Shown here: positions 2,960 through 64,000 of the stretch, piece after piece
Position numbering within the stretch: position 1 is the stretch's first letter
Layout of the letters: the number at the start of each line of letters is the position of its first letter
Origin: Escherichia coli
GTDB lineage: Bacteria > Pseudomonadota > Gammaproteobacteria > Enterobacterales > Enterobacteriaceae
Direction: 5' to 3' (one strand)
Assembly (NCBI RefSeq): GCF_011045215.1
Contig: NZ_CP049201.1
DNA: 64,000 nucleotides
Translations under genes and position numbers: made by a program
Notes under the pieces: generated by a model
Database searches by the model: none
What the model saw: only the letters and a program-made list of their open reading frames with translations
Told to the model about the DNA's origin: nothing

Positions 2960-3549
2960 AGTGTATTCCTTATTGTTGCTTAGTTAGGGTAGTCACTATA
3001 TTTGCGACTGAGCTGGTCGCTATTTTTAACCAGTCTGGAAAATTGAGTCAATATATCGAAAGCGGTAGTCGGCGGGTGTAAGTATGTAATGATGATGCTG
3101 CACTGGTGTTGAATATTATTCACGCCAAATTTTCCTTATTGAGCAACGTCGTCGCAAGTGGCCTCAATGATTTTAGACCATTATCAAAGGTACGGGGCGG
3201 CGGGGAGAGATTTAGTGCTGTGAAATATTGTGGTACTGATGAATATTTATATCGCGGATTGGTAGAGAAAAGATTATTTCATGCACTATTTTTGCAAATA
3301 TTTCTATATGGGAAGCGTGTTTGTTACGGATTAATTCATAAAGAAATGCATTTGGGTGTTGGTTTGAAGAGTCGCTGGTTGATGTTATTGTGCCAGGAGG
3401 GGCAGGGTAAGGTGCTGTATCGATATGCATTGGCAATTGCGTGTGCCGCAGATGGAGATGAAATGCCAATAAAAAAGCCTGAATTCGATGAGGGACGAAC
3501 TCAGGCTAGTGTTTAGTTTTACAGTAACACGCCGCAGCACGTTGGCTGA

Positions 3550-48827: not shown

Positions 48828-49376
48828 ATGCAATTTAATATCCCTACGTTGCTTACACTGTTCCGTGTCATCCTTATCCCATTCTTTGTATTGGTCTTTT
48901 ATCTGCCTGTCACCTGGTCGCCGTTTGCCGCCGCGCTCATTTTCTGCGTCGCGGCGGTGACTGACTGGTTCGATGGTTTTCTGGCACGCCGCTGGAACCA
49001 GAGTACCCGGTTTGGTGCTTTCCTTGACCCTGTAGCAGATAAAGTTCTCGTGGCTATCGCCATGGTGCTGGTAACCGAGCATTACCACAGCTGGTGGGTG
49101 ACCTTACCGGCGGCAACGATGATCGCCCGTGAAATTATTATTTCTGCGCTACGCGAATGGATGGCGGAGTTGGGTAAACGCAGTAGCGTGGCTGTCTCCT
49201 GGATTGGGAAAGTGAAAACCACTGCCCAGATGGTGGCGTTGGCATGGCTGCTGTGGCGTCCGAACATTTGGGTTGAGTACGCCGGTATTGCACTTTTCTT
49301 TGTGGCTGCGGTACTGACTCTGTGGTCAATGTTGCAATATTTGAGCGCTGCGCGTGCAGATTTGCTTGATCAGTGA
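48828..49376 (+). CDS. pgsA: CDP-diacylglycerol--glycerol-3-phosphate 3-phosphatidyltransferase PgsA
   Basis: 182 aa; CDP-alcohol phosphatidyltransferase motif (DWFDGFLAR...). Confidence 0.93.
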
Positions 49377-49527
49377 TCGTTTCGGCGCAATTTTCAGCAA
49401 ACGATCAAAAGTGGTGAAAAATATCGTTGACTCATCGCGCCAGGTAAGTAGAATGCAACGCATCGAACGGCGGCACTGATTGCCAGACGATAATAAAATC
49501 AAGTGATTAACTGATTGCTTGATGAAT

Positions 49528-49603
<76 letters not shown>

Positions 49604-49656
49604 GTTTAAAAGGCATCGGCGTCAGCGGATGTCTGGCTGAAAGGCCTGAAGAATTT

Positions 49657-49730
49657 GGCGCGTTAACAAAGCGGTTATGTAGCGGATTGCAAATCCGTCT
49701 AGTCCGGTTCGACTCCGGAACGCGCCTCCA
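49657..49730 (+). tRNA. cysT: tRNA-Cys (anticodon GCA)
   Basis: GGCGCGTTAACAAAGCGG...GATTGCAAATCC...CGCGCCTCCA. Confidence 0.92.
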
Positions 49731-49742
49731 CTTTCTTCCCGA

Positions 49743-49829
49743 GCCCGGATGGTGGAATCGGTAGACACAAGGGATTTAAAATCCCTCGGCGTTCGCGCTG
49801 TGCGGGTTCAAGTCCCGCTCCGGGTACCA
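49743..49829 (+). tRNA. leuZ: tRNA-Leu (anticodon TAA), long variable arm
   Basis: GCCCGGATGGTGGAATCGGTAGACACAAGGGATTTAAAATCCC...CCGGGTACCA. Confidence 0.92.
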
Positions 49830-49865
49830 TGGGAAAGATAAGAATAAAATCAAAGCAATAAGCAG

Positions 49866-49897
49866 TGTCGTGAAACCACCTTCGGGTGGTTTTTTTG
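49866..49897 (+). terminator. Rho-independent terminator of the tRNA operon
   Basis: aaaccaccttcgggtggttttttt. Confidence 0.7.
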
Positions 49898-49998
49898 TAT
49901 TTGTATTTTGAGCAATGGCGGTAGAGTGGCGGTGGTGTGGCGATATGCAGAAACAACAATGGTAGTGCACGTGCTGTTTAAGCTCTAAGGATGAAGCA

Positions 49999-50190
49999 GA
50001 ATTCTCCTGCAGCTCCTCCGTATTTCGCATAGTGAACCAAGACTTCGGTTAAACAAAATTTTTCTGGGATTTTTCCACTCGACTTCATTTTTCCTCCAGT
50101 CATCCACCAAAGGTACCTGCGCTAATCTATCTTTTTTAATCTGACAACATCCTGAGAAAAGGCAAATTCGTCAGATTTACTGTTTTTTCT
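49999..50190 (-). repeat. Degenerate hok/sok-like element lacking the hok ORF (paralogous to 50860-51230)
   Basis: Direct, ~70-75% similar blocks (ctccgtatttcgcatagtgaacc / cttcggttaaaca / ccaaaggtacctgcgctaatctatc / aggcaaattcgtcagatt) shared with the hok locus flanks; the ~120 bp carrying the hok CDS is absent. Confidence 0.55.
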
Positions 50191-50370
50191 ACTGCTTCGA
50201 ATGCCGATGTCTGCAGTACTGATAAGAGCTCTATCTCTTTGATATAGATCTTTTATTTGATGAATTGCTCGACATATTATCGTTATGACACCTTCTTGTT
50301 AAAGGTGTTGTACTCCACATCTCGATTTTATGATGTGGGTTATGATTGGTTAGTAATAGAGTGTATCGGT

Positions 50371-50652
50371 ATGCGATGTGGTTTATTAATGGCAATCTGC
50401 TTTTGTTTGGTATCTTTTAGTGGGTATGCAGCAACAGGAAAGTCTGATGTTCAGATCAAGAAAGAAATAATTAAAGAATCCATTGAATCATATCCAGGCA
50501 ATTGTGCGTGTCCTTATAATCATGCAAGGAATGGTAGTAGGTGTGGTGGACGCAGTGCATATAGCCGTACTGGAGGGTATGATGTGGTATGTTATGAGAG
50601 TGATGTTACTGATGAAATGATCCGGCAATGGAAGCAGGAGAATGCTGATTAA
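50371..50652 (+). CDS. Hypothetical small secreted Cys-rich protein
   Basis: ORF 50257..50652; likely start at ATG 50371 (MRCGLLMAICFCLVSFSGYAA signal-like N-terminus), ~70-aa mature part with four Cys; AT-rich; strong terminator downstream; family not recognised. Confidence 0.5.
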   Translation: MRCGLLMAICFCLVSFSGYAATGKSDVQIKKEIIKESIESYPGNCACPYNHARNGSRCGGRSAYSRTGGYDVVCYESDVTDEMIRQWKQENAD

Positions 50653-50730
50653 TTACTTTTGACTGGTTTGTTTTGCGAGCATTATGTGTGTTGTTAACGG
50701 TACCCTAGCTAAGTGAGAGTTCCAAAATAA

Positions 50731-50762
50731 AACCCGCAGTTTTTACGCTGCGGGTTTTATTG
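50731..50762 (+). terminator. Rho-independent terminator
   Basis: aaaacccgcagtttttacgctgcgggttttattgttt. Confidence 0.75.
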
Positions 50763-50843
50763 TTTCTGTCGATGGGATAGGGTGCCACTTCGGCCAGCCT
50801 TGGCAACCGATTGACGGGGGATTACTCCCCCGTCGCGGTTTCC

Positions 50844-50984
50844 TTACTGCTTACACTGTAAGAACGCCGCAAACTCCGCTCCCCAGAAGCTCATCCGTAT
50901 TTCACACAGCGAACCGTGCAGCATCCAGATGATGAGGATTACCGTCACGCAGAACGTGATGGCCGTAAGCGATTTTTGCGACAT
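50844..50984 (-). CDS. hok: Hok/Gef-family type I toxin (46 aa), below the ORF-track length cutoff
   Basis: Minus-strand translation MSQKSLTAITFCVTVILIIWMLHGSLCEIRMSFWGAEFAAFLQCKQ: single TM helix plus the Hok signature SLCEIR and AAFL tail (HokA-like). Confidence 0.8.
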   Translation of the reverse strand: MSQKSLTAITFCVTVILIIWMLHGSLCEIRMSFWGAEFAAFLQCKQ

Positions 50985-51165
50985 AGCGCTTGCTCCTTTT
51001 TAGGGGAGGCGCTAACCTATCACTTGCTAAGGTTAGATGGTTAGGGCCTCGGTTAAACAGGGATGTTTTCCGGGGCCTTTCCACATCTGGCCTTCGGGCA
51101 TACCCTCCGACCATCAGCCGAAAGGCACCCGCGCGTAATCTATCGTTTTTTTGTTGCTTCGGCAA
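50902..51165 (-). other. mok-like overlapping reading frame / hok mRNA leader; sok antisense RNA expected on + strand within ~51040-51120
   Basis: 87-codon frame overlapping the hok start in another frame, the arrangement of mok in hok/sok loci; sok position inferred, not demonstrated. Confidence 0.45.
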
Positions 51166-51174
51166 TTCTGCTCG

Positions 51175-51435
51175 TTAATTCTGAGGTAAAGGCAAACTCA
51201 TCTGATTGTTTCCCCTGTGTGACGTTGGCAGTTCATGCCACGGGATACCTTCTGAAGATCGAACGCCTGAGGTGTGTTTCGATGTGAATTTATGGAAAGC
51301 TTCCAGTGTTGAGAAGCATACGCCGCATTCCAGGTTGTTACACTGGTAATACTTTTGTCGGACGGTGTTTGAATCATTTTCCGGACGACTTGTGCGGATA
51401 CGGGCAGATGCGCCACAAAGCGGACAACGGAACAT
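51175..51435 (-). CDS. ogr: Ogr/Delta-family zinc-finger late transcription activator
   Basis: MFRCPLCG...ARIRTSR...YYQCNNLECG Cys4 pattern typical of P2 Ogr; AGGGAGG RBS. Confidence 0.85.
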   Translation of the reverse strand: MFRCPLCGASARIRTSRPENDSNTVRQKYYQCNNLECGVCFSTLEAFHKFTSKHTSGVRSSEGIPWHELPTSHRGNNQMSLPLPQN

Positions 51436-51611
51436 AGCAACCTCCCTTTAGGTGGTGCTATTCTAAATTTCATCAATGCAGATTCCAACTCCTTCCCACT
51501 TTAAGCGAAGGATGGTGATAAAGTCAGAAGATGTTAGATGAAATCTAAACGGGCGATAAGTTTTCCAATATTTGAATAACAACGTGGCAGGATTTTTGTT
51601 TATCAATTATC

Positions 51612-51629
51612 TTACACTTTTAAGTGTAA
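51612..51629. promoter_or_regulatory. Perfect palindrome TTACACTTTTAAGTGTAA (candidate operator) upstream of the cargo gene
   Basis: 8-bp inverted arms around a 2-bp centre, ~25-40 bp upstream of the cargo ORF start. Confidence 0.4.
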
Positions 51630-51654
51630 TAAATTTGTTAGTGATGACAATATT

Positions 51655-53077
51655 GTGAGAGGAGATTATCAATTGAAGATGGCAAAAAATAACAATGATA
51701 AAATGCGGGCAAAGTATAGGCCGTTCATAAATATATGGGAACATCTTCCTTCTGAGTTCAATGAACTCATCAAGACGTTAATGGTGCTGATACGGCAAGG
51801 GGAAAATGTGGGAGCTCAGCAAAGGGAGCTTGATTCCATCGAAAACTTCAAACACCTGTTAAGTGGATGGAAGCGGGCGCAAAGGATCATAGCTGATGAA
51901 CTCATTATCAGGCTTTCTCAAATCAAGGATCTGGAGTTAGAAAAGAATTGTGCCCATTCAAAAAAGGACTATGAAACAAAGAAGAAGTGTATACGCAATA
52001 TTGAAAGGACTAGACTAGAAATTAGGATTTTACGTAGGTGCATTGATTCAATTGTATGGGCGATATTCCGCAATGAACACTCGTCTATAAGACGTTTACC
52101 TATAAATAGAAATACTGACAATCTGACAATATTTAATATACATGATTCAATGGTGGTAGCAGATGAAATCAATGCTGATCCGATGGCTATAGCTGTTATC
52201 ACTGATATTACTACGTTTGTACATACTGGTGATTTACTTGCGTTAATACCTCAGCAAGGCATAACTTTAATTGAAATAAAAAGTGGTAAGAAAAATATAG
52301 AGTTTTCAAAGGCGGCTATGTTCTCAGTGCAAAGTAAATGTCTTCATTTTGATGAGATTTATAGAAAAGACCTTGATAAAAATGACTTGAAACACTATGA
52401 CAGAGCTAAGCGTCAACTTAAAAGAGCTCAAAATGTGATAGATGTCATTGAGACTGGTAAGGGATTTGATAACTTTTTTCAGTCTCAAGTAACAATTCAT
52501 GACAGAGATTTTTGTCCCGATTTTTATACAGATAAGATTATTGAGCTTTGGTATGAGATATATAACGGTAAAACTTGGGCGATTACTGACATTAATGATT
52601 GTTTATTCCTTGGGGCATATATTAATTCTAATATGGGTTTTTGCGGTTTTAATGGATGGATGGAGGTATCTAGAATATCGGGGAGAGTGGTTTAATATTC
52701 TTGATAGCTTTTCAGATGCTTTATCACGTCCATTTTTTAGTTTGAACCTACCTGATAAATTGCTTCTGGATATCATTAATGGCAATCTAATTGTTGTGCT
52801 GTGTTTCGATCATCGTCGTTTCGTAGAAAGAGCAAATAAAAAATACCCCGGGATTTATGAGTTATTGGATTTTCCATCTCCGAAGATTAATCCTATGAGT
52901 ATGCTTTCCATCAATGGGAAGGGGGTAGTTTCTAGTGTTGATGGACAGAGTGTTTTTATTGGAAATGGTTACGAAACTCGGATTATTTTTGATCAGCAAT
53001 ATCCAGATAGTCTGATTAAGTGGTCATACCATATGAGTGATCTCAAAAAAATATTGATAAAAAAAAGCGTAAAATGA
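51655..53077 (+). pseudogene. AT-rich prophage cargo gene of unknown family, apparently frameshifted (~470 aa if merged); PD-(D/E)xK-like motif
   Basis: ORFs 51655..52695 (frame 1) and 52499..53077 (frame 2) overlap; both have protein-like sequence outside the overlap; frame switch needed near the G-run at 52678-52690; motif VITDI...TGDLLAL...LIEIKSGKK. Confidence 0.55.
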
Positions 53078-53272
53078 AAAAGGAAACGCAAAGAAAAATA
53101 AAAGAGAAAAGAAAACGTAGCAGAAAACAATGCTTAAACTAACACATCTAATGCTTTAATTTGCTTTACTGTTACAATGTCCGCTTACTGGTACAGGGCG
53201 GACTGCCATATTAGATTTGGTTCTATCTCGTAAGAGTGGCCGTTCAGGTCTGCACTAATACATCTGAATGGT

Positions 53273-54382
53273 TCACTCTGTTTCTGCTATCCATTCCGGG
53301 ATTTTTGCTTCAAGCTCAAGCTGCGTGGTAAAGCCGCTGTTATCAATGGTGTGCTCGGCTTTTGCAATAATCCAGTCCTGATTATCAATCTCGCTTTTAA
53401 ATCCTGTTACCGTGCCATGCATTTCGGGGTAGAGTTCTGCGCGTCCGCGTGCCAGTGTGATGGAGAATGATGCGGCTCCGCGTTGTAGTTGTTGCCACTT
53501 TGCCGCCGCTGCGCGTCTTGCTGCCTGCTCGTTCTGATAAGTCTTGCGTAACACAAACACATTGCCTTCCGCGCCTTCCATATAATCACCTTCACGGCTG
53601 CTGCTTTTCTCTTTTTTCGGTTTTGGCGGTTTGCGGCGTTTCACGCTGACTTTTTTCTTTTTCCCGTAATTAAGATCAAGCCAGTAAGCGCGTACCCCCG
53701 TATACGCCTCGCGGTCAGCAATGCGGAACTGATGGCGATCGCCGCTGCTGCGTGTGATGGCGAACGAGGGCAACGGCTGGCCCTGTGCGTTCACGCCACC
53801 GCCGGGCATGATGAATAACAGATTACCGCTTTTTACCGTGGTGATTGCGCCCAGCATTTCCGCCATGCGCGTAAGGAAGGACATGTCACTTTCTTCGGTC
53901 TGGTCGGCGTGGTCGATTTCGATATCCATCAGCATTTCGCTGATTTGCGGTTTCAGACCGTACCGATGAGCGATGGCGGATACCACACGCTCAACGGTCA
54001 CATCATGCCAGGACATCTCACGTTTAACGTTAAATTCATCCCGAAAATCTGCGCTTCTGGCTGAAACAGTCAGCCTGTCCGGCGGTCCTTCGTGTGCGAT
54101 TTCATCAACAATGTAAGAGCCTTTTTCTGTCAGCGGTTCGCCTTTCCAGCCAATGAGAACCGTCAGGCGCGCGCCCCGTGGCGGTAGCCGCAACTGACCA
54201 TCCGCATCATCCAGCGTGATGGTGAGCTGGTCTGCCTCAAATCCCCGGTTGTCGGTCAGCGACAGGCTCATCAGGCGCTCTGCCACGCCGGACAGCGTTT
54301 TACCCTCCGCGAGAATATCAAAATCCGGCATTTTTACGGGGTCTGTGCCCTGACTGAGCAATTGCATGGTGGTGTCGGTCAT
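53273..54382 (-). CDS. P2 gpD-like tail protein (late control gene D homolog)
   Basis: Start at ATG 54382 (MTDTTMQLLSQ...) with GGGAGGG RBS; 369 aa; gpD-like. Confidence 0.8.
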   Translation of the reverse strand: MTDTTMQLLSQGTDPVKMPDFDILAEGKTLSGVAERLMSLSLTDNRGFEADQLTITLDDADGQLRLPPRGARLTVLIGWKGEPLTEKGSYIVDEIAHEGPPDRLTVSARSADFRDEFNVKREMSWHDVTVERVVSAIAHRYGLKPQISEMLMDIEIDHADQTEESDMSFLTRMAEMLGAITTVKSGNLLFIMPGGGVNAQGQPLPSFAITRSSGDRHQFRIADREAYTGVRAYWLDLNYGKKKKVSVKRRKPPKPKKEKSSSREGDYMEGAEGNVFVLRKTYQNEQAARRAAAAKWQQLQRGAASFSITLARGRAELYPEMHGTVTGFKSEIDNQDWIIAKAEHTIDNSGFTTQLELEAKIPEWIAETE

Positions 54383-54539
54383 CTGTTCCCTCCCTGTGCG
54401 GCATGGTCGCATGTGCGTGCGGAGGGGGTTACTGCTTTTTGTTGTCGCCGGGTCGGGAGAACGGCGCAGGGGTGAGATTACGCGCGTGGTGGGTGATGAT
54501 TGTTGCCGAATCATTTAACGGATACAAGGGGCTGAAGCT

Positions 54540-55724
54540 ATGAGTGAAACTCGTTTTCATGGTGCCCGTGTTACGGAAAATACCGACCTGGTAACAGCGA
54601 TTAACGATGTTGATTCCAGCGTTATCGGTATCGTGGCAACGGCGGATGATGCGGACGCGAAGCTGTTCCCGCTGAACAAGCCCACACTGCTGACCCGCGT
54701 CAATGACGTGCTGGGAAAATGCGGGACAACGGGGACGCTTTATCGTGCGCTTAAGGCCATCGCAGACCAGGTGAGCACAAAGGTGATCGTCGTTCGCGTG
54801 GCTGAACACAAAGAAGAAGACGGAAAAACGCAGGATCAACTGGTTATCGGTGGTTCTGAATCTGACGGCAGCTATACGGGGATGTATGCGCTGCTTGTTG
54901 CAGAGCAGGATGAAAGCATCGGATACCGTCCGCGTATTCTGGCCGCGCCGGAGCTGGACACGGAGGCGGTAACAAAATCCCTGTGCGTGATTGCGGGTAA
55001 ACTGCGCGCGTTTGTGTATGCCTCATGTCACGGCTGTAACACGATGGCTGAGGCGATTACCTACCGCCAGAAATTCAACGAACGTGAGGTGATGCTCTTA
55101 TGGCCGGACTTCATCGCCTACAACCCGAAAAGTGGCAAAAACGAAACGTTCCCCGCGCCTGCCTATGCGTGCGGCCTTCGTGCGTACATTGACCATGAGC
55201 AGGGATGGCACAAATCACTGTCCAACGTTCCGGTTAAAAATGTGCTGGGGATGTCGAGGCATGTGTTCTGGTCGTTGCAGGCCGAAGACAGCGATGCCAA
55301 CAGCCTCAACAACAAAGAAATCACGACCATTATTCGTCGCAACGGGTTCCGCTTCTGGGGCAACCGCACACCGGAAACGAACGCCTACATCTTTGAGGTG
55401 TATACCCGAACCGCACAGGTGCTGGCTGATTCAATTGCGGAAGCGCAGTTTGAAACCATCGACAGTCCATTAACACCCGCGAACGTGAAGGATGTTATCA
55501 GTGCCATCAGGGCAAAACTGGATTCGCTGGTTACTGCCGGGAAACTGATAGGCGCGGAGTGCTGGTATGACGTGGTGGATAACAGCACCACGGATTTACG
55601 TCAGGGACGTGTGCGTATTCGCTACAAATATACGCCCGTTCCGCCACTGGAAGACATGGAGCTTTACCAGACGTTTACTGATGAATACTTTGAACCCGCA
55701 TTTGCGGTGCTGGGAGGTGCCTGA
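54540..55724 (+). CDS. P2 FI-like contractile tail sheath protein
   Basis: 394 aa; blocks shared with P2 FI (FPLNKP, LRAF, WPDF, EQGWHK.LSNV, IRRNGFRFWGNRT, YTPVPPLE). Confidence 0.9.
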   Translation: MSETRFHGARVTENTDLVTAINDVDSSVIGIVATADDADAKLFPLNKPTLLTRVNDVLGKCGTTGTLYRALKAIADQVSTKVIVVRVAEHKEEDGKTQDQLVIGGSESDGSYTGMYALLVAEQDESIGYRPRILAAPELDTEAVTKSLCVIAGKLRAFVYASCHGCNTMAEAITYRQKFNEREVMLLWPDFIAYNPKSGKNETFPAPAYACGLRAYIDHEQGWHKSLSNVPVKNVLGMSRHVFWSLQAEDSDANSLNNKEITTIIRRNGFRFWGNRTPETNAYIFEVYTRTAQVLADSIAEAQFETIDSPLTPANVKDVISAIRAKLDSLVTAGKLIGAECWYDVVDNSTTDLRQGRVRIRYKYTPVPPLEDMELYQTFTDEYFEPAFAVLGGA

Positions 55725-56236
55725 TGGCTGTGCCAAAACATCTTCGCTTTTTTACGCTGTTTGTGGATGGTGAAAACGAAGTGGGTAAGGTGACGTCCGT
55801 CACTCTGCCTAAGCTGACGCGCAAAACCGACAGCTACCGGGGTGGCGGCATGATGGGTGCGGTAAGTATTGATCTCGGTCTGGACGACTCCGCGCTTGAT
55901 GCGAGCTTTGTCATGGGGGGCGCAGTTCGTGAGCTGTTCCTTAAGTATGGCGGCACGATTGACGGCACGCTGCTGCGTTTTGCGGGTGAATACTACACCG
56001 ATGCAGAAAGCGACCTGTATGAAGTCGAAATGCGCGGACGTGTGACGGAAATTGATATGGGGGAAGCCAAACAGGGCGAAGCCACATCACACACTTACGC
56101 CATTAAAAACACCTACTACAAGCTGAGTGTTAACGATCGCCCGTTGTGGGAGATTGACCTGCTGAACTTCATTTACCGGAAGGACGGCAAGGACATTGTG
56201 CCCGATCGCATCCGTTCCGCGCTTGGGCTTGGCTGA
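55724..56236 (+). CDS. P2 FII-like tail tube protein
   Basis: 170 aa directly after sheath gene. Confidence 0.85.
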   Translation: MAVPKHLRFFTLFVDGENEVGKVTSVTLPKLTRKTDSYRGGGMMGAVSIDLGLDDSALDASFVMGGAVRELFLKYGGTIDGTLLRFAGEYYTDAESDLYEVEMRGRVTEIDMGEAKQGEATSHTYAIKNTYYKLSVNDRPLWEIDLLNFIYRKDGKDIVPDRIRSALGLG

Positions 56237-56290
56237 TAAGTAATATGCAGGCGGCGCAGTGCGTCGCCTCTGACTGAAAGGAGTTTCCTG

Positions 56291-56656
56291 ATGAAAGAGA
56301 CGAAAAACATCGATACCGAAAACACGGTAGTTACTGACACTGTGAAAGAAACCAGTGAGCGTGGCGTAAAACTTACCCAACCAATTGAGCGAGGCGGCGA
56401 AAAAATCACGTATGTGGAGATCACCGGGGCTATTGAGCAGGCTGGATCTCTGCGAGATTTGTCGCTGTCTGATGTGCTGAATCTGAAAGCGGAATCCATG
56501 TTTACGCTGCTGTCACGCGTGACATCACCGCGACTGGATGAAGTGACGATCAAAAAAATGGCATCCCGTGACTTTATTCAGTTATGTGTGGTTGCCGTAA
56601 ATTTTTTGAGCGGTGCGGACTCTGGCGGGAAGAACGAACAGGCGACGGAAGCCTGA
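56291..56656 (+). CDS. P2 gpE-like tail assembly chaperone (E; E+E' by -1 frameshift)
   Basis: 121 aa; followed by overlapping E' frame 56584..56820. Confidence 0.8.
   Translation: MKETKNIDTENTVVTDTVKETSERGVKLTQPIERGGEKITYVEITGAIEQAGSLRDLSLSDVLNLKAESMFTLLSRVTSPRLDEVTIKKMASRDFIQLCVVAVNFLSGADSGGKNEQATEA
56602..56608 (+). promoter_or_regulatory. Programmed -1 ribosomal frameshift slippery site (T TTT TTG) for E+E' fusion
   Basis: Heptamer TTTTTTG inside gpE where the E' frame (56584..56820) opens; conserved recoding in P2-like tail chaperones. Confidence 0.7.
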
Positions 56657-56770
56657 TCACGGTTGTGTGCTTTGAGCACATAGAAGACTTTGTGGCGGAT
56701 ATTGCCGCCATTTTTAACTGGTCGCCCGCCGAAATCTTCATGATGACGCCCGGCGAAGTGGTTAGCTGGC

Positions 56771-59614
56771 GTGAGCGGGCGGCACTTCGCAGCGGGAATG
56801 CAGACAATGAAGACTCTTGATATCCGGGTCGCTTTCAGCGCCGTTGACAGGCTGACCCGGCCTGCCGAAAACGCCCGCCGCCTGATGGGGCAGTTTGGTG
56901 ACTCCATCCAGCGAACGCAGGGGGCGATCAAAAATCTCGAGCGTCAGGCGCGTTCATTTGAGCGCGCCCGTGACGCTGTCAGTAAAGCGGATGCTGGCAT
57001 ATTGAAAGCACGACGCCAGCTTAACGCCCTTAATCAGTTACAACGCACGGGTACAGTGCTCAGCGAAAAACAACAAAAGCTGATGCAGCAGTTAAGCACC
57101 CGGCTTGAACGCCTGAATGAATCGCGCACACGTGAAATTCAGAAAATGCGGGAGCTTGGCGGAGAGCTGAAACGCCACGGCATTTCCCTGACAGGCAGCG
57201 ATAACACCATCCAGCAGGCCATCAGACGCACCGAACAGTACAACAACCAGCTTGAACGCGAACGGCAGGCGCTTGCGCGTGTAACGCGGGCGCGTGAGCG
57301 GTATTCGCGCGCGCAGGAAACCGCGGGAAAACTGAAAACAGGTGGTGCGCTGGCAATTGGTGCGGCAGCGGCTGGCGGCTATGCTGCCGGGCGTTTTTTG
57401 CAGCCTGCGATCGGGTTCGGCAAAGAGATGTCCCGCGTTCAGGCACTGACGCGAATCGACAAAAACAGCCCGCAGTTTAAGGCGCTGCGTGAGCAGGCGT
57501 TAAAACTTGGCTCTGAAACACAGTTTACTGCGAGTGATGCCGCCAGTGGGCAGAGCTTTCTGGCAATGGCTGGTTTTACTCCGCAGTCCATTCAGGCCGC
57601 ATTGCCCGGTGTTCTTAATATGGCGCTGGCAGGTGGCGTCGAACTCGGCGAGACGGCTGATATAGGCTCCAATATCCTCACACAGTTCAACCTGACAGCC
57701 GATCAAATGGGCCGTGTTGGCGATACGCTGACAGCAGCATTCACCCGGACCAATACTGATTTACGCGCGCTGGGCGAAACCATGAAGTATACCGGTCCGG
57801 TTGCCGCAAAACTTGGTATCAGTCTTGAAGAAGCGGCAGCCATGGCCGGGATGCTTGCCAATAATGGTCTTCGTGGAAGCGATGCTGGTACGGCCATTCG
57901 CGCAAGTCTGTCCCGCCTTGCATCACCGCCAAAAGCTGCGGCTGATGCGCTGAAAGAGCTGGGGGTGTCAGTTGCTGACGCCAGAGGCAAAATGCGCCCG
58001 ATGGAGGATGTGCAGCTTGATCTCTACAAGGCGACACAAAAATACGCACAGGTGGACCAGGTTTCCTTCTTCAAGGACATCGCCGGAGAAGAGGCGTTCG
58101 TTGGTTTGCAGACGCTTGTTGCGGCGTCTGGTTCAGGAGAGCTGCAAAAACTGACCAGAGAATTGCAGGGGGCAAGGGGAGAGGCCGATCGCGTTGCAAA
58201 AGTAATGGCCGATAATCTTGATGGGGACCTGAAAAATCTCGACAGCGCATGGGAAGGTCTTCGTATTCGCATCAGTGATCTGGTTGACGGTCCGCTGCGT
58301 TCTGTCACGCAGTGGCTCACGCGGGGGCTTGAAAAAATCACCTCGCTGGCGCAGGCCCATCCGGTACTGACGCGCCAGCTACTGATAGCAGGCGGTGCGT
58401 TGCTGGCAATGACTGTAACGATTGGCTCGTTGTCGCTGGTTATTGGGGGGCTTTACGGGAAGCTGGCTACCTTGCGTCTTGGTTTTGACATTCTTACCCG
58501 GTCAATGAATGTCGTCAGGGTGTTGCCTGCGCTGTGGGGAATGGTGACGGGTTCCGTTTCTTTACTGGGAGGCGCTATCGGGGCGCTGTTCAGTCCGGTT
58601 GGTCTTATCGTGGCTGCGCTTGCCGGAGCTGCCGTTCTTATCTGGAAATACTGGGATCCCATCAGGGCATTTTTTGCAGGGGTGTTCAGCGGGATTATGG
58701 AAAGGCTGACCCCGTTGCGCGAAACCTTTGAACGGTTTGGTCCTGTTTTTGACGCAATCGGAAGCGGGATCAGCCAGGTGTTTAACTGGTTTAAATTGCT
58801 GCTGTCACCGATGGAGTCCAGCAAGGAAACGCTGGATAAATGCACCAGTGCTGGCGAGGTATTCGGTAACGTTCTTGGTGGCGCGTTACAGCTTGTTCTG
58901 ACGCCTGCAAAAATGCTGCTGGATACGCTGGCGTGGATACTTGAAAAACTCGGTGTGCTTCCGGATGAGGCGGAAAGGGCGCGTAAGAAAATCGAAGACG
59001 CACAGCGTGCGGCCATTCTTCAGGACAAGGTTGCCTTGCTTCAGGGGGATCTGGCGAAAATCAATCCGCCGAAGCCTGTGGAAAATGGCAATGGCACCGG
59101 AGGTGATAAACCCAAAGACAACAAACCGCTCACAGACAGCAATACCGGGACGCTACGCAGACTCAGCAAAATTGCTGATAACACAGGTAAGCTGGTTGAT
59201 GAGACGAAAAAACGCATTGGCCCCGGCGATATTGTCTTTAAGAACCTGCCCCGCGCACTTGCTGTTCGTGGGGAGTGGCAGGAGCGGAAGATTGCGCAGG
59301 TCAGTAAGCCTGCCCCCGCAATTAATATCACACCTGTGGTCCCGGCTCCGCTGCCTCCGACGCTGGTCCCTGTTGTTGCGGCCAGCTCCCGCCCGGTGGC
59401 GGAGTCCATACGATCTCCAGTGGCATCAGTTCCTGCAACTTCCCGTAACCGGGAGCCTGTTGCCTCCGGATTTGGCGGTGAAATTCATGTTCATCTGCAT
59501 AACGTTGTTACGCAGAATCCCCGCGAACTGGCGAAACTGGTCGGCGAAATGGTCAGTGCAGAAATGGAACGGCGCGCCCGTGCCAGGCGTGGCAGTTTTT
59601 ACGATAAAGATTGA
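56771..59614 (+). CDS. P2 gpT-like tail tape measure protein
   Basis: 947 aa, coiled-coil N-terminal part and hydrophobic Gly-rich central segments. Confidence 0.88.
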   Translation: MSGRHFAAGMQTMKTLDIRVAFSAVDRLTRPAENARRLMGQFGDSIQRTQGAIKNLERQARSFERARDAVSKADAGILKARRQLNALNQLQRTGTVLSEKQQKLMQQLSTRLERLNESRTREIQKMRELGGELKRHGISLTGSDNTIQQAIRRTEQYNNQLERERQALARVTRARERYSRAQETAGKLKTGGALAIGAAAAGGYAAGRFLQPAIGFGKEMSRVQALTRIDKNSPQFKALREQALKLGSETQFTASDAASGQSFLAMAGFTPQSIQAALPGVLNMALAGGVELGETADIGSNILTQFNLTADQMGRVGDTLTAAFTRTNTDLRALGETMKYTGPVAAKLGISLEEAAAMAGMLANNGLRGSDAGTAIRASLSRLASPPKAAADALKELGVSVADARGKMRPMEDVQLDLYKATQKYAQVDQVSFFKDIAGEEAFVGLQTLVAASGSGELQKLTRELQGARGEADRVAKVMADNLDGDLKNLDSAWEGLRIRISDLVDGPLRSVTQWLTRGLEKITSLAQAHPVLTRQLLIAGGALLAMTVTIGSLSLVIGGLYGKLATLRLGFDILTRSMNVVRVLPALWGMVTGSVSLLGGAIGALFSPVGLIVAALAGAAVLIWKYWDPIRAFFAGVFSGIMERLTPLRETFERFGPVFDAIGSGISQVFNWFKLLLSPMESSKETLDKCTSAGEVFGNVLGGALQLVLTPAKMLLDTLAWILEKLGVLPDEAERARKKIEDAQRAAILQDKVALLQGDLAKINPPKPVENGNGTGGDKPKDNKPLTDSNTGTLRRLSKIADNTGKLVDETKKRIGPGDIVFKNLPRALAVRGEWQERKIAQVSKPAPAINITPVVPAPLPPTLVPVVAASSRPVAESIRSPVASVPATSRNREPVASGFGGEIHVHLHNVVTQNPRELAKLVGEMVSAEMERRARARRGSFYDKD

Positions 59615-59620
59615 GGAGTC

Positions 59621-60115
59621 ATGGCCATGATGATGATCTATGGCATGTTTGTTTTTGAGCTGCGCACACTGCCACATCAGCAGTTACAGCAAAACAAAAG
59701 CTGGCGGCATGTGAAAAATGAACGCGTTAACCGTTCAGCAAGCTGGCAGTATATCGGTGCAGGTGATGATCGCATCGTTCTTTCCGGCGTGCTTTATCCT
59801 GAAATTACAGGTGGTGAAGTGTCGCTGTCGCTGCTGACCACGCAGGCATATACAGGGCGGCCCTGGCCTCTGATTGATGGTGTCGGGCAGATTTACGGCA
59901 TGTATGTCCTGACCGGAACGAATACGACCCGCTCCGAGTTTGATCGCTACGGTAAGGCGAAAAAAATAGAATTTTCACTGACCCTTGAACGCTGTGATGA
60001 GGATTTGCGGGAGCGCCTGCAATCCTCATCGTTCAGCGATATGCTGTCCGGCTTCAAAGATAAGGTGACATCATCCCTTAACAGCGCGGCCAGTTCAGTT
60101 AAAGGACTGTTCTGA
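59621..60115 (+). CDS. P2 gpU-like tail protein
   Basis: 164 aa directly after tape measure gene. Confidence 0.8.
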   Translation: MAMMMIYGMFVFELRTLPHQQLQQNKSWRHVKNERVNRSASWQYIGAGDDRIVLSGVLYPEITGGEVSLSLLTTQAYTGRPWPLIDGVGQIYGMYVLTGTNTTRSEFDRYGKAKKIEFSLTLERCDEDLRERLQSSSFSDMLSGFKDKVTSSLNSAASSVKGLF

Positions 60116-60211
60116 TTTTACATTGCCGCCGATACCCTCATATTGGGTAATGGGCGGCTTGTTGTTATATAATATATCGTAGGTCCTGATAAAACTGTTG
60201 AGGTTTCTACT

Positions 60212-61450
60212 TTATAAAGAATTGCTACTTTCTAATTCTGGGTTTCTGGATCTATTTTTACAACCTAAATCCGAGTGGTAATTCGGTATATCGTTTGTCA
60301 AATCTTGTTTGATAGCATTAATTAAGATCATTATGTCGAATTTATGCATATCGTCGCCCCCTTCAGACCTTAGATGTTCGGATGTGGTGAGTTGAGTCGC
60401 TAATTTGCTGTTTGGCCCCCACACAATATTGTTTTCGAATTTTCCTTCATGCATTCTGTTATTATATATACAGTATTGTCTAATGTTTAATCCACTGGCT
60501 AAATGTACAATAGCAGTATCTACAGTTATAACAAAATCAGCATGGCGAACCAATGCAAATGAACATCCGGCATCAGAAAATGGAGATAGAGACACATTAT
60601 CCAATCCATTGTGATTAATCTGTTCTCCCATATTAAAAACTATTGTGTGATATCCCTTAAGGTTATTAAGGTAAGCTAGTACTTTGTTTATCTGTTCATC
60701 AGATAATGTTCTGCTATTCTGAGAACCATAAGGGTTAAATATAACTAATTTTTTGTTTTTCTTCCTGAATTCATTTGCAACAATATTTGCTGGTTCATAT
60801 ATTTTGTTGTCAAAATTAAGCGCTGCAGCATAATTATTATTTTTTATCTTTAGTAAAGATAAAACTTTTTTCATTCTTTCAGATGTGTGAATGGAACGAT
60901 TATCGATTATATTTGTATCAAAAATAGTTACGGCAGGATGATTAAAACAGATAGAGTGTTTAGGTCTAAGTAAATGTAGTGTTTGCAATCTGGTTATCGC
61001 TGTGTTATCAAAATTTGAGAAGTCAACAACAAGATCTACATTCAGTTTTTTTATCTTTGCTTTTAGTTCGTTAAATTTATTTTTCTCGTAAGATATAAAG
61101 GCATCCACGCCAACAATATCAGTAAAGAGGAATGATACTCTTGAAGGTGCTATCACATATACCACCATACCGGATTTTTGAAGTTGTTTAATAAACCCTG
61201 AGGTAACGATGCCGTCACCAATGGCTTGCATGTGCATGAAAATGCACACTGTTTTATAACTATCCGGCTGTAATGATGTTTTCCTTCTGTATCGCATTTT
61301 TAGAAATGCCAGTCTGGCCTTCGTCTTTATCTTTTTTGTTTTAATATTTCGCTCTCTGTTAAGCTGTTTTAATGATGAAATAACATTCATAATGGTACCC
61401 TGAAAATCCAAATCACACATGTCATCCGAAATGAGCAGGATACTATACAA
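60212..61450 (-). CDS. Glycosyltransferase family 9 (ADP-heptose:LPS heptosyltransferase-like) cargo gene, AT-rich
   Basis: 412 aa; GT9-like N-terminal motif CIFMHMQAIGDGIVTSGFIKQL and C-terminal HADFVITVDTAIVHLASGLNIRQYCIY; sits between tail-fibre-assembly G and tail genes (Z/fun position); start may be internal. Confidence 0.7.
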   Translation of the reverse strand: MYSILLISDDMCDLDFQGTIMNVISSLKQLNRERNIKTKKIKTKARLAFLKMRYRRKTSLQPDSYKTVCIFMHMQAIGDGIVTSGFIKQLQKSGMVVYVIAPSRVSFLFTDIVGVDAFISYEKNKFNELKAKIKKLNVDLVVDFSNFDNTAITRLQTLHLLRPKHSICFNHPAVTIFDTNIIDNRSIHTSERMKKVLSLLKIKNNNYAAALNFDNKIYEPANIVANEFRKKNKKLVIFNPYGSQNSRTLSDEQINKVLAYLNNLKGYHTIVFNMGEQINHNGLDNVSLSPFSDAGCSFALVRHADFVITVDTAIVHLASGLNIRQYCIYNNRMHEGKFENNIVWGPNSKLATQLTTSEHLRSEGGDDMHKFDIMILINAIKQDLTNDIPNYHSDLGCKNRSRNPELESSNSL

Positions 61451-61484
61451 AAAACTGGACTACAATGGTTTGAAATGAAAGCCT

Positions 61485-62084
61485 TTATGCTTGTTTACTC
61501 CTTGATTCCACTGGGGAAGCAGGCCACTCAATATCCGGTGCTCTTGATGTATCAACACGGTTCAGCAGCACTCGATACTTCTTCCATGCCACCAGTAACG
61601 ATGTTTCTTCCTCTGTTGCAATATTCAAATCTACGGCATCTTGAAGTGGCGAAATATGCTCACTGGCTACCTGCATGAGGCTGTTTTTTGTTTCTTCCGC
61701 CTCCCGTATCCGGAACACTTTTTCTGCTTCTGCATCTTTCACCCACGTTGTGCCGTTCCACTTCTGAAACTCCCCTTCCGGGGATAACCAGGTGACATTT
61801 TCCGGTAATGGACCGAGTTCAGAAATAAATAACGCGCCCCCTGATGCCACGTCATAAACCGTTTTACCACGATGATCTTCAACGAGATGCCAGGACGTCT
61901 TATCACTGTTGAAAATAGCCACGAAGCCAGCTGGAATATCTGGCGGAGAAATATCAGTACTATTTGCAGGTAGACCTGTATGAGGTGGAATGTATGCATC
62001 ACCTTCACCAATAAATTCATTGGTTCCGACCAGCAGATTATAAATTTTTATGGTTCGTGGTTGTTCACTCATTCTGAATGCCAT
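61485..62084 (-). CDS. Tail fibre assembly protein (P2 gpG/Tfa-like)
   Basis: 199 aa; start overlaps stop of tail fibre gene. Confidence 0.85.
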
Positions 62085-63259
62085 TATGCAAGCCTCACAA
62101 TATAGTTAAATGCGATGTTTTTTACGGTGTTTTCCGCGTTGCCATAAGCGGCAATGGTAATGGTGTGTGTGTGCGAACCAATAGCGAGCGTATGTGTATG
62201 CGCACCTATTGCTACTGTGTGAGTATGAGCTCCTGCGCTTAATACGCGATTACTTGCTGTCTTGCTTGTGTTAGTTGCATGCATTCCACCACCGGTACCG
62301 GGAGTTTCTGCGTATGCTGAAGTATTGTTGTAAGCAAAGTTGTGTGTATGTGCTCCGGTGTTATTTGTGGATTTAGTTCCGTAATCAAACGACGATGTGG
62401 TTTTCGTCCCCAAATCCGTACTGGATGCGCTGGCGCTGTGGGTGTGCGATTTAATGCCGTCCTGTTCCTGAGACAATACGGCTCGACCACTGGCTGGTTT
62501 GCCCTTAATCGTCCAGCCACGCATATCAGGGATCACGCCTGACGGATAAGCGGCTGCAAGTTTCGGGTATGCAGATTTGTCAAAAGTCTGCCCCTGCATC
62601 AGGGCATAACCAGACGGAACGGTATCTGATGGCCACGGGATTGGTGCGCCAGGCGGATAAAACTGCTCTGATGGCGTATAGAGTGAATAAACTGTACCGT
62701 CCGTTAACCCTTCCGGCTTATTAGCAGAATATGCTGGTGACGTATGAATCGTCACGCTGGCATTACTGGTATAATCCCATTGAATATTTACACCAGTCGC
62801 ATAATTTCCGATTGCAACGTAAATATCGTAAGTATCACCAGATGTATTGACCCAGGCAAAATTTGTAAACCCTGTCGATGTGCGCTGCCATAAAGCACCA
62901 GTAATCCCCTTCGGATTACCATTACCTGCACGCAAAACAAGTTCAGATATACCTGCCTGTTGAGGTGAACCGACGTTATATCCAGCCCCACCAATCAACG
63001 TAATTGAAACAACAGAACTCGCCTGCGGCATGGTTACCGTTGCTAATTTGAACCAACCAGCACCACCGCTAAATGACATAGTTGTTGAGTTAAGCGTACC
63101 AATATCTTTCGGTGTCAGTGTTATATCCGCTGAAAGCGCCTTACCATTCACCTTACGGGCAGAAGGTACGGTCTGGCAAGAGCCGCCCGGCAAACGTCCT
63201 GGCATCAGTCTGCGCTTTACTTTAAGCGCAATGTATTGCTCGGTTGCTACATCCCGCAC
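62084..63259 (-). CDS. Tail fibre protein, C-terminal part of gpH-like protein (5'-truncated, fused at a deletion junction)
   Basis: C-terminal repeats [30 protein letters not shown] typical of enterobacterial phage tail fibres; N-terminal ~35 aa of the ORF is antisense read-through of the portal fragment. Confidence 0.7.
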
Positions 63260-64000
63260 CCGCTGCTTTCCCGGCAGGATTTCTCGGCGCTGGCGCTGGA
63301 CTGGTTTGTGTTCGGTAACGCATTCCTTGAGCTTCGGAGCAATATGCTCGGCGAACCACTTAAATTACGGCACGCACTGGCGAAATACATGCGACGCGGA
63401 AGCGATCTTGAATCATGGTGGTATGTGCAGGATGGCAAGGACGCGTTTCAGTTTCGCCCTGGCAAAGTGTGCCACCTGATGAATCCGGACATTAACCAGG
63501 AAATTTACGGCATGCCGGAATATCTTGGAGCATTACTCTCGGCCAGCCTGTCTCATTCGGCGGACATGTTCAGAAAACTGTATTACGACAACGGATCCCA
63601 CGCCGGGTGCATCATCTACATCGGTGCAGCGCAGGTAAACCGCGAAAGCATGGACTCCCTGAAAGAAACGTTACAGGGTGCGCGTGGTGGTGGTGCGTTT
63701 AAAAACGTGCTCATCCACGCGCCCAACGGGGGCAAAGAGGGGGTGCAAATTTTGCCGTTCCAGCAGATCACCGCAAAGGATGAGTTCATGAATGTTAAGG
63801 CGGCATCCCGTGATGATGTGCTGGCTGCGCACCGCGTTCCGCCGCAACTGATGGGGGCGATGCCGGGCGAAAAAAGTGCGTTTGGTGATGTGGAGAAGGC
63901 CGCGCGGGTTTACGCAATTAACGAGCTGATGCCCGTCATGGAGGCTATGAAGCACATCAATGACTGGCTTGGCGAAGAGGTGATCCGCTTTAACCCTTAC
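63248..64000 (+). pseudogene. Portal protein (P2 gpQ-like) fragment, 5'-truncated, runs off window end
   Basis: Frame-2 translation open to window end: ...[15 protein letters not shown]...FMNVKAASRDDVLAAHRVPPQLMGAMPGEKSAFGDVEKAARVYAINELMPVMEAM...; portal-like RVPPQLMG motif; not in ORF track because it has no stop in window. Confidence 0.65.

Follow-up and report, generated by a model that had tools for sequence, protein, structure and literature searches.

A probable two-way late promoter region between the divergent gpD and FI genes of P2-like prophages

The D/FI junction and the start codon of gpD

In phage P2 gpD is encoded by the last gene of the F operon, which reads FI-FII-E-E'-T-U-D. 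A P2-like prophage of Escherichia coli carries a module of the same gene content, but here FI-U is inverted relative to V-W-J-I-H-G and D-ogr, and D diverges from FI instead of ending the operon. This raises the question of whether the spacer between the two genes is the scar of a rearrangement that deprived gpD of its promoter, as a reading of the sequence alone had suggested, or a regulatory region that serves both genes. The analysed stretch of 64,000 nucleotides (the window, 64 kb) is E. coli chromosome with fli genes, uvrC and pgsA, followed by the genes for tRNA-Gly, tRNA-Cys and tRNA-Leu at 49528-49829; the prophage comes next and extends past the window end.

The divergence of gpD and FI across 157 bp, which the sequence-only reading had pointed out, is real and was confirmed by the sequence and by Pfam and PHROGs matches. 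gpD, the tail/baseplate hub protein (Pfam Phage_GPD, phrog_52), is encoded on the minus strand at 53273-54382, with 369 residues from an ATG linked to a Shine-Dalgarno (SD) sequence. FI, the tail sheath (Pfam Phage_sheath_1, Gp18_domIII_N and Phage_sheath_1C; phrog_23), lies on the plus strand at 54540-55724. The other genes of the block with an orientation opposite to that in P2 follow on the same strand at 55724-60115, namely FII (tube), E/E', T (tape measure) and U (Pfam Phage_tube, PhageMin_Tail and Phage_P2_GpU; phrog_103; annotation of strain 14EC001). As homologues of gpD, FI, FII, E, T and U were all identified by Pfam and PHROGs, the genes form a Peduoviridae contractile-tail module, and the region is 92-97% identical to classified Peduoviridae. 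D does not stand right after U on the same strand, as in the canonical F operon; U ends 5.7 kb from D and on the opposite strand.

The spacer, the proposed two-way late promoter region, occupies positions 54383-54539 and has a GC content of 58.6%. On its gpD side the plus strand reads ggtCATctgttCCCTCCCtgtgcgg (54377-54401), where CAT at 54380-54382 is the ATG of the minus-strand gpD ORF; on its FI side it reads caaggggctgaagctATGagtgaa (54525-54548), with the ATG of FI at 54540. The SD sequence of gpD, GGGAGGG (54388-54394 on the minus strand, plus-strand ccctccc), is located 5 nt upstream of the ATG, and relatives carry an equivalent SD sequence.

Read mechanically, the D ORF remains open as far as an ATG at 54514, and a gpD of 413 residues starting there would make the spacer mostly coding and reduce the true gap to 25 bp. 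The open frame, a 1242-bp form in the RefSeq record of phage 500465-2 and a 43-aa ORF at this place in phage P88 agree with such a start, which we nevertheless regard as extremely unlikely. No ribosome binding site precedes 54514, while a strong one precedes 54382. The N-terminus of gpD aligns from the short-start Met with gpD of KSP20, ST16-OXA48phi5.4, phiT5282H and P2, i.e. homologues in four other genera begin at the short position, and in many relatives the SD-linked ATG is the sole in-frame start candidate before a stop codon. Conservation in the spacer is block-wise, coinciding with the dyad and -10 boxes described below, and lacks a three-base coding periodicity; the public annotations, moreover, conflict with each other. 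Based on the strong ribosome binding site, the N-termini of the homologues and the sole start candidate in many relatives, the start at 54382 is the better call.

The annotation of gpD is inconsistent across the clade. It has 413 aa (1242-bp form, RefSeq) in phage 500465-2, 366 aa in the P88 record, which also lists a separate 43-aa 'hypothetical protein' inside the spacer, and in the record of strain 14EC001 it appears as a 266-aa 'VgrG/Pvc8 family' protein plus a pseudogene fragment. The comparison fixes a start codon that has been annotated three ways in public records.

Distribution and age of the inverted FI-U block

The gpD-to-U segment is a single collinear piece shared, at 92-97% identity, with phages P88 (Xuanwuvirus), 500465-2, PhiR44_2, PhiSM, P884B11 and Chuche. 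The junction is identical in P88, PhiSM, 500465-2, P884B11 and Chuche (E. coli/Citrobacter), and the annotations of P88-type phages carry the same D(-)/FI(+) order. The same junction occurs in Serratia KSP20, in Klebsiella ST16-OXA48phi5.4 (Reipivirus) and in Enterobacter phiT5282H (Novemvirus); with KSP20 the arrangement is common, but the identity across the junction is only about 70%. The sequence-only reading had named a divergent D/FI order as the intact norm of homologous prophages as the observation that would speak against a breakpoint, and this order is the normal one in P88, 500465-2, PhiSM, KSP20, ST16-OXA48phi5.4 and phiT5282H. A 651-bp probe spanning the junction was found at nearly full length in 1354 of 5426 complete E. 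coli genomes. Among viral contigs gpD had 432 relatives; the best 80 of these 432 were all 98-100% identical and thus of no use for footprinting.

A census with one genome per bacterial species yielded 80 loci, which were classed by tblastn with D, FI, FII and U. FI was divergent from D in all 41 loci with a gpD identity of 61-99%. These cover about 20 genera of Enterobacterales (Citrobacter, Trabulsiella, Edwardsiella, Serratia, Enterobacter, Pantoea, Erwinia, Kosakonia, Brenneria, Klebsiella, Raoultella, Yokenella, Providencia, Photorhabdus, Xenorhabdus, Hafnia, Rouxiella, Yersinia, Morganella and others). At a gpD identity of 54% or less, 37 of 38 loci had the P2 order, with U immediately before D in the same orientation, and the remaining one (L145) gave no U match. 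P2 and the outgroup phage phiCTX (Pseudomonas) likewise have a co-directional U-to-D order. Given the clean split in the census and this order in P2 and phiCTX, we take the FI-U inversion to be a single old event that defines the clade. The clade is P2-like (Peduoviridae) and includes P88/Xuanwuvirus, Gemsvirus, Reipivirus, Novemvirus and the KSP20 type, all with FI-FII-E-T-U inverted relative to P2. The proposed inversion therefore stands as far as the comparison with P2 and phiCTX is concerned, but not as a local or recent breakpoint, since it is clade-wide in 41 of 41 loci.

The last locus of the census (L129), in Providencia rettgeri RB151 (NZ_CP017671.1), is a degenerate copy. Its gpD is N-terminally truncated, with matches from residue 66, a U homologue lies directly upstream on the opposite strand, and FI and FII are missing; FI-T appears to have been lost from this locus by internal deletion.

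A local or recent inversion would make the spacer a breakpoint scar, leave gpD promoterless and render the prophage tail-defective. It would explain a gene order unlike that of P2, where D ends the F operon, and the window prophage does carry damaged cargo genes. We give this explanation next to no credence, as an identical junction is present in viable phages, in 1354 E. coli genomes and in 41 of 41 clade loci, as neither junction has inverted repeats and as the D-side promoter elements described below are conserved. The inverted-repeat check suggested by the sequence-only reading, 54383-54539 against 60116-60211, gave no repeat linking the junctions, and across 53000-61600 only short inverted or direct pairs at chance level were found, none of which joined both FI-U junctions. 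P88 is inducible and able to lyse many E. coli strains, and PhiSM shows spontaneous activity (PMC5285337, PMC6456863); hence, the essential gene D must be expressed in the divergent arrangement.

A programmed invertible segment of the Gin/Cin/Hin type was rejected, because flanking inverted repeats are missing and all 41 clade loci show one orientation. No invertase gene was found beside U within the window; the invertase of P88 serves a tail-fibre segment.

The divergent D/FI layout is the standard for a P2-like clade that is carried by roughly one in four complete E. coli genomes, and should not be scored as a rearrangement or defect when prophage intactness is called. The main value of the comparison is corrective and practical: the junction is not a rearrangement scar. 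Many annotated genomes already display the arrangement, and neither the promoter type nor the design with a shared site goes beyond textbook P2 biology. In the published literature on P88, Peduoviridae inversions and P2 late promoters, neither the FI-U inversion nor a D promoter was found described.

A conserved dyad flanked by mirror-symmetric -10-like elements

The published late-promoter element of P2 is TGT-N12-ACA (PMC3931495). The search for it that the sequence-only reading had called for gave no exact match in the spacer, but one site with a single mismatch, TGT-N12-AGA at 54443-54460 (TGTCGCCGGGTCGGGAGA). On a single sequence the element is uninformative, since the whole window holds 17 exact matches against 15.3 expected and none of them falls in the spacer. 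A one-mismatch site in a single spacer is likewise at chance level, as about 21 of 45 shuffled spacers have one, and the site therefore gains significance only from the comparison across genomes.

For this comparison 45 distinct orthologous D/FI spacers were used, with start codons set from tblastn frames and SD sequences. Their length is constrained to 140-166 bp, with a median of 153 bp. Exact TGT-N12-ACA is present in 23 of the 45, while 1.5 were expected and at most 6 were reached in 500 dinucleotide shuffles. With up to one mismatch the element is found in 41 of 45 spacers, and in nearly all cases it begins 56-76 bp away from the start codon of D. The remaining four spacers have GTTGTC-N10-CAGGCC (L096) or, in three Providencia species, GTTCTC-N10-GAGAAC. 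Anchored on the site, the spacers give the extended consensus GTTGTC-N10-GACAAC, which was drawn from the same alignment, so that the TGT-N12-ACA statistic alone is a priori. The left half is nearly invariant and forms the most conserved block of the spacer; the right half-site varies (GACAAC, CAGACC, GAGAAC), which makes the symmetry imperfect.

In the window the dyad GTTGTCgccgggtcggGAGAAC (54441-54462, centre 54451.5) has the form GTTGTC-N10-GAGAAC. It agrees with the extended dyad at 11 of 12 positions and is the only match with at most one mismatch in the 64-kb window. Its conservation and its form, the same as that of P2 activator sites, identify it as a candidate Ogr-type activator dyad shared by the two genes. 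Between the window and P88 the spacer has 2 differences in 157 bases, and both fall within the non-specific dyad centre.

In the three Providencia loci (L115, L116 and L127) both halves of the dyad are altered symmetrically, GTTCTC-N10-GAGAAC as compared to GTTGTC-N10-GACAAC. As both halves have changed in this way, the DNA specificity of the activator is suggested to have shifted in this sub-lineage.

The -10 elements were scored in a dyad-anchored alignment of 31 spacers that are less than 90% identical to each other. On the FI strand a hexamer gAxtAT stands out, with A2, A5 and T6 each in 27 of 31 spacers; on the D strand it is TGn plus aAxxAT, with A2 in 27, A5 in 23, T6 in 25 and the G of TGn in 24 of 31. 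Both hexamers are found 43.5-48.5 bp from the dyad centre, in mirror-image positions. In the window, GATGAT (54495-54500, plus strand) is the predicted -10 hexamer of pF, at the distance seen in P2 pO and pF, and TGcGACCAT (54403-54411, minus strand; hexamer GACCAT at 54403-54408) is the predicted extended -10 element of a promoter for gpD, pD. The predicted D leader is short, about 14-15 nt. The anchored alignment also shows a D-side box, CATGTGCGTGCG (54410-54421), the local form of a conserved CATGCGCGCGCG box that has no obvious counterpart in P2. Further conserved blocks on the FI side are a CGTG box and a GAACTCA box; in the anchored conservation profile GGGTGA (54470-54475, plus strand), in the pF -35 region, is the local form of a conserved gCGTGa box.

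A generic scan for sigma-70 promoters and terminators across 53000-55000 gave nothing in the spacer and no -35/-10 pair. This is to be expected of activator-dependent promoters lacking a -35 element, and does not count as positive evidence. Rfam, searched at gathering thresholds across 49000-64000, likewise gave nothing in the spacer; three tRNAs and IS009 were found elsewhere.

Hence, the late promoter that the sequence-only reading had placed here for the F operon appears to be present, with a conserved Ogr-type dyad and a -10-like hexamer at the P2 distance. The promoter loss it had proposed for gpD is contradicted by the D-side -10-like element, which is equally conserved and in the mirror position, and by the near-identical spacer of P88, a viable phage.

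Instead of serving the late activator, a dyad of this kind might have a structural role, as a hairpin in DNA or RNA or as a terminator, or might bind another regulator. Its inverted-repeat form and the Providencia version GTTCTC-N10-GAGAAC, which keeps the complementarity, are in line with this. In most genera, however, the right half changes (e.g. to CAGACC) with no compensation in the invariant left half, so that only some 3 of 6 pairs would form; neither transcribed strand has a T-run after the repeat, and Rfam at gathering thresholds reports nothing at the dyad. The dyad sequence also matches the annotated activator sites of P2. Taken together, we consider these alternatives very unlikely.

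The P2 genome provides the closest model. Its RefSeq record, which together with PMC3931495 is the source of the '-55' rule used here, annotates one 'activator binding site; pO, pP promoters' at 3057-3087, with mapped starts at 3016 (P) and 3127 (O). The pP/pO dyad is GTTGTG-N10-GCCATC with its centre at 3071.5, and the distance to this centre is 55.5 bp for both starts and 43.5-48.5 bp for the pO hexamer GAAACT. P2 pF has GTTGTG-N10-GCCAAC 53 bp upstream of GAAAAT. The annotated pP/pO and pF sites of P2 are also one mismatch away from the published element, with TGT-N12-CCA. In phage Smp131, pP' and pO' have been described on one shared TGT-N12-ACA (PMC3931495), and in the P/O spacer of a related prophage the same motif is seen as TTTTGTTGTA-N10-CAGAAC, followed by CGCGCG and TAATCT.

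The D/FI spacer shares with P2 pP/pO the divergent late units about 150 bp apart, a single partial dyad of the TGT-N12-ACA type, -10-like hexamers 43.5-48.5 bp from its centre on both sides, which would place the starts here at about 55.5 bp, the distance mapped in P2, the lack of a recognisable -35 element and a phage-encoded zinc-finger activator of the Ogr/Delta type. As the D/FI geometry equals that of the pP/pO design base for base, a minus-strand start near 54396 and a plus-strand start near 54507 are predicted. The genes served are different, D (and ogr) and the F operon here, the P/Q and O operons in P2, which has no promoter directly upstream of D, unlike the pD proposed here. With P2 pF the FI side has in common a dyad 51-53 bp upstream of GAxxAT and a leader of some 30 nt before FI.

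In summary of this evidence, the spacer is likely to be a conserved two-way late promoter of the P2-like clade, in which pF and 'pD' share one Ogr site. From the P2 family we infer that the Ogr homologue would bind the dyad late in infection; the mirror geometry and the pP/pO precedent suggest that bound Ogr would recruit RNA polymerase to both flanking -10 elements, with the dyad about 55 bp upstream of both divergent start points. The rightward pF (GATGAT, start near 54507) would then drive FI-FII-E-E'-T-U and the leftward pD (TGcGACCAT, read from 54411 to 54403, start near 54396) would drive gpD; in most relatives pD probably also reads into ogr, as P2 pF does. The sequence comparison shows the gene identities, the arrangement throughout the clade, the conserved dyad and the mirror-symmetric -10-like elements; Ogr binding, the Ogr dependence of both promoters and the exact start sites are expected from the P2 pattern. 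The dyad at 54441-54462, the -10 elements at 54403-54408 and 54495-54500 and the predicted starts near 54396 and 54507 provide a testable promoter map for the clade.

Extended -10 promoters can function without a -35 element or an activator, and the D-side TGn-type -10 element could act without the activator. Accordingly, only pF might depend on Ogr, with gpD transcribed from an activator-independent extended -10 promoter (TGcGACCAT) and its timing not strictly late. A TGn precedes the D-side hexamer in most relatives (G in 24 of 31), and of the two dyad halves the right one, on the FI side, varies more. However, the D hexamer keeps the exact mirror distance in nearly all genera, for which an independent promoter offers no reason, P2 pP/pO is a precedent for activation in two directions from a single site, and D is a structural tail gene required in step with FI-U. 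We therefore regard an activator-independent pD as unlikely, and favor the shared Ogr site.

How the shared site arose can be addressed more tentatively. An ancient inversion may have placed the palindromic Ogr site of pF beside the 5' end of gpD, where a mirror -10 element then evolved, so that reuse of the site created a fifth late promoter, pD; we see this as a serious possibility rather than as the probable course of events. On that reading, pD would drive a small D-ogr unit and thereby preserve the late positive feedback on the activator gene, and the symmetrical alteration of the two Providencia half-sites would be a sign of co-evolution with an altered activator specificity. The locus would then be a natural example of an inversion turning a one-way activator-dependent promoter into a two-way one, of use in phage engineering and in the annotation of Peduoviridae late operons.

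The activator gene and the prophage around the junction

The prophage encodes an Ogr/Delta-family zinc-finger late activator of 86 aa at 51175-51435 (minus strand), annotated as ogr/Delta-like in strain 14EC001. The ORF matches Pfam PF04606 (Ogr_Delta) with E = 4.8e-14 and 52.5 bits, the curated cut-off being 26.3, and has four Cys residues in a CX2C-X24-CX4C arrangement. In 38 of the 41 clade loci D is followed by ogr in the same orientation, across a gap of 40-105 bp, and the P2 record places a single terminator behind ogr that serves the ogr transcript as well as that of the F operon. In the window a cargo gene of about 1.5 kb is located between gpD and ogr on the opposite strand (51655-53143, plus strand). 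It is broken over three frames by 2 indels, encodes a 487-aa hypothetical protein in 14EC001 and has no match in Pfam or PHROGs. Given the short D-ogr gap in those 38 loci, the gene is an insertion, which distinguishes the window from the P88-type relatives.

Strain 14EC001 contains a 99.4%-identical copy, in which the whole element is visible. It starts with hok and ogr (-), cargo (+), D (-) and FI-FII-E-E'-T-U (+), continues with the tail-fibre assembly and fibre genes, I, J, W, V, S, R, the lysis genes, X, L, M, N and O (all -), and ends with P and Q (+). Compared to P2, the FI-U block alone is flipped; D and ogr are oriented like the other late genes.

The prophage adjoins tRNA-Leu(taa) at 49743-49829, the last gene of the Gly-Cys-Leu cluster, and a toxin gene of the hok/gef family is found at this prophage end (about 50845-50985). 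P88-type elements occupy other sites in other strains, e.g. 500465-2 near flk. In a related prophage outside the window (L003, 36493-36505), the S-like and V genes are only about 11 bp apart, at a point where P2 has orf30 and the pV activator site; owing to this short gap, the L003 lineage may do without a separate pV promoter.

At the other end of the FI-U block, at the junction of U with the tail-fibre-assembly gene, the window has a 412-aa ORF (60212-61450, minus strand) whose 341-aa core is phrog_36326 and which shows a weak match to Glyco_transf_9 (heptosyltransferase). This GT9-like gene replaces the DNA invertase and invertible fibre segment that P88 has at this point; ST16-OXA48phi5.4 carries DUF262 genes and 14EC001 nothing. 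To judge from these sequences, the junction looks like a hot spot for variable cargo. Rfam IS009 (RF02111) was found at 61543-61741 (minus strand), within the tail-fibre-assembly gene, with 187.7 bits, well above the gathering score.
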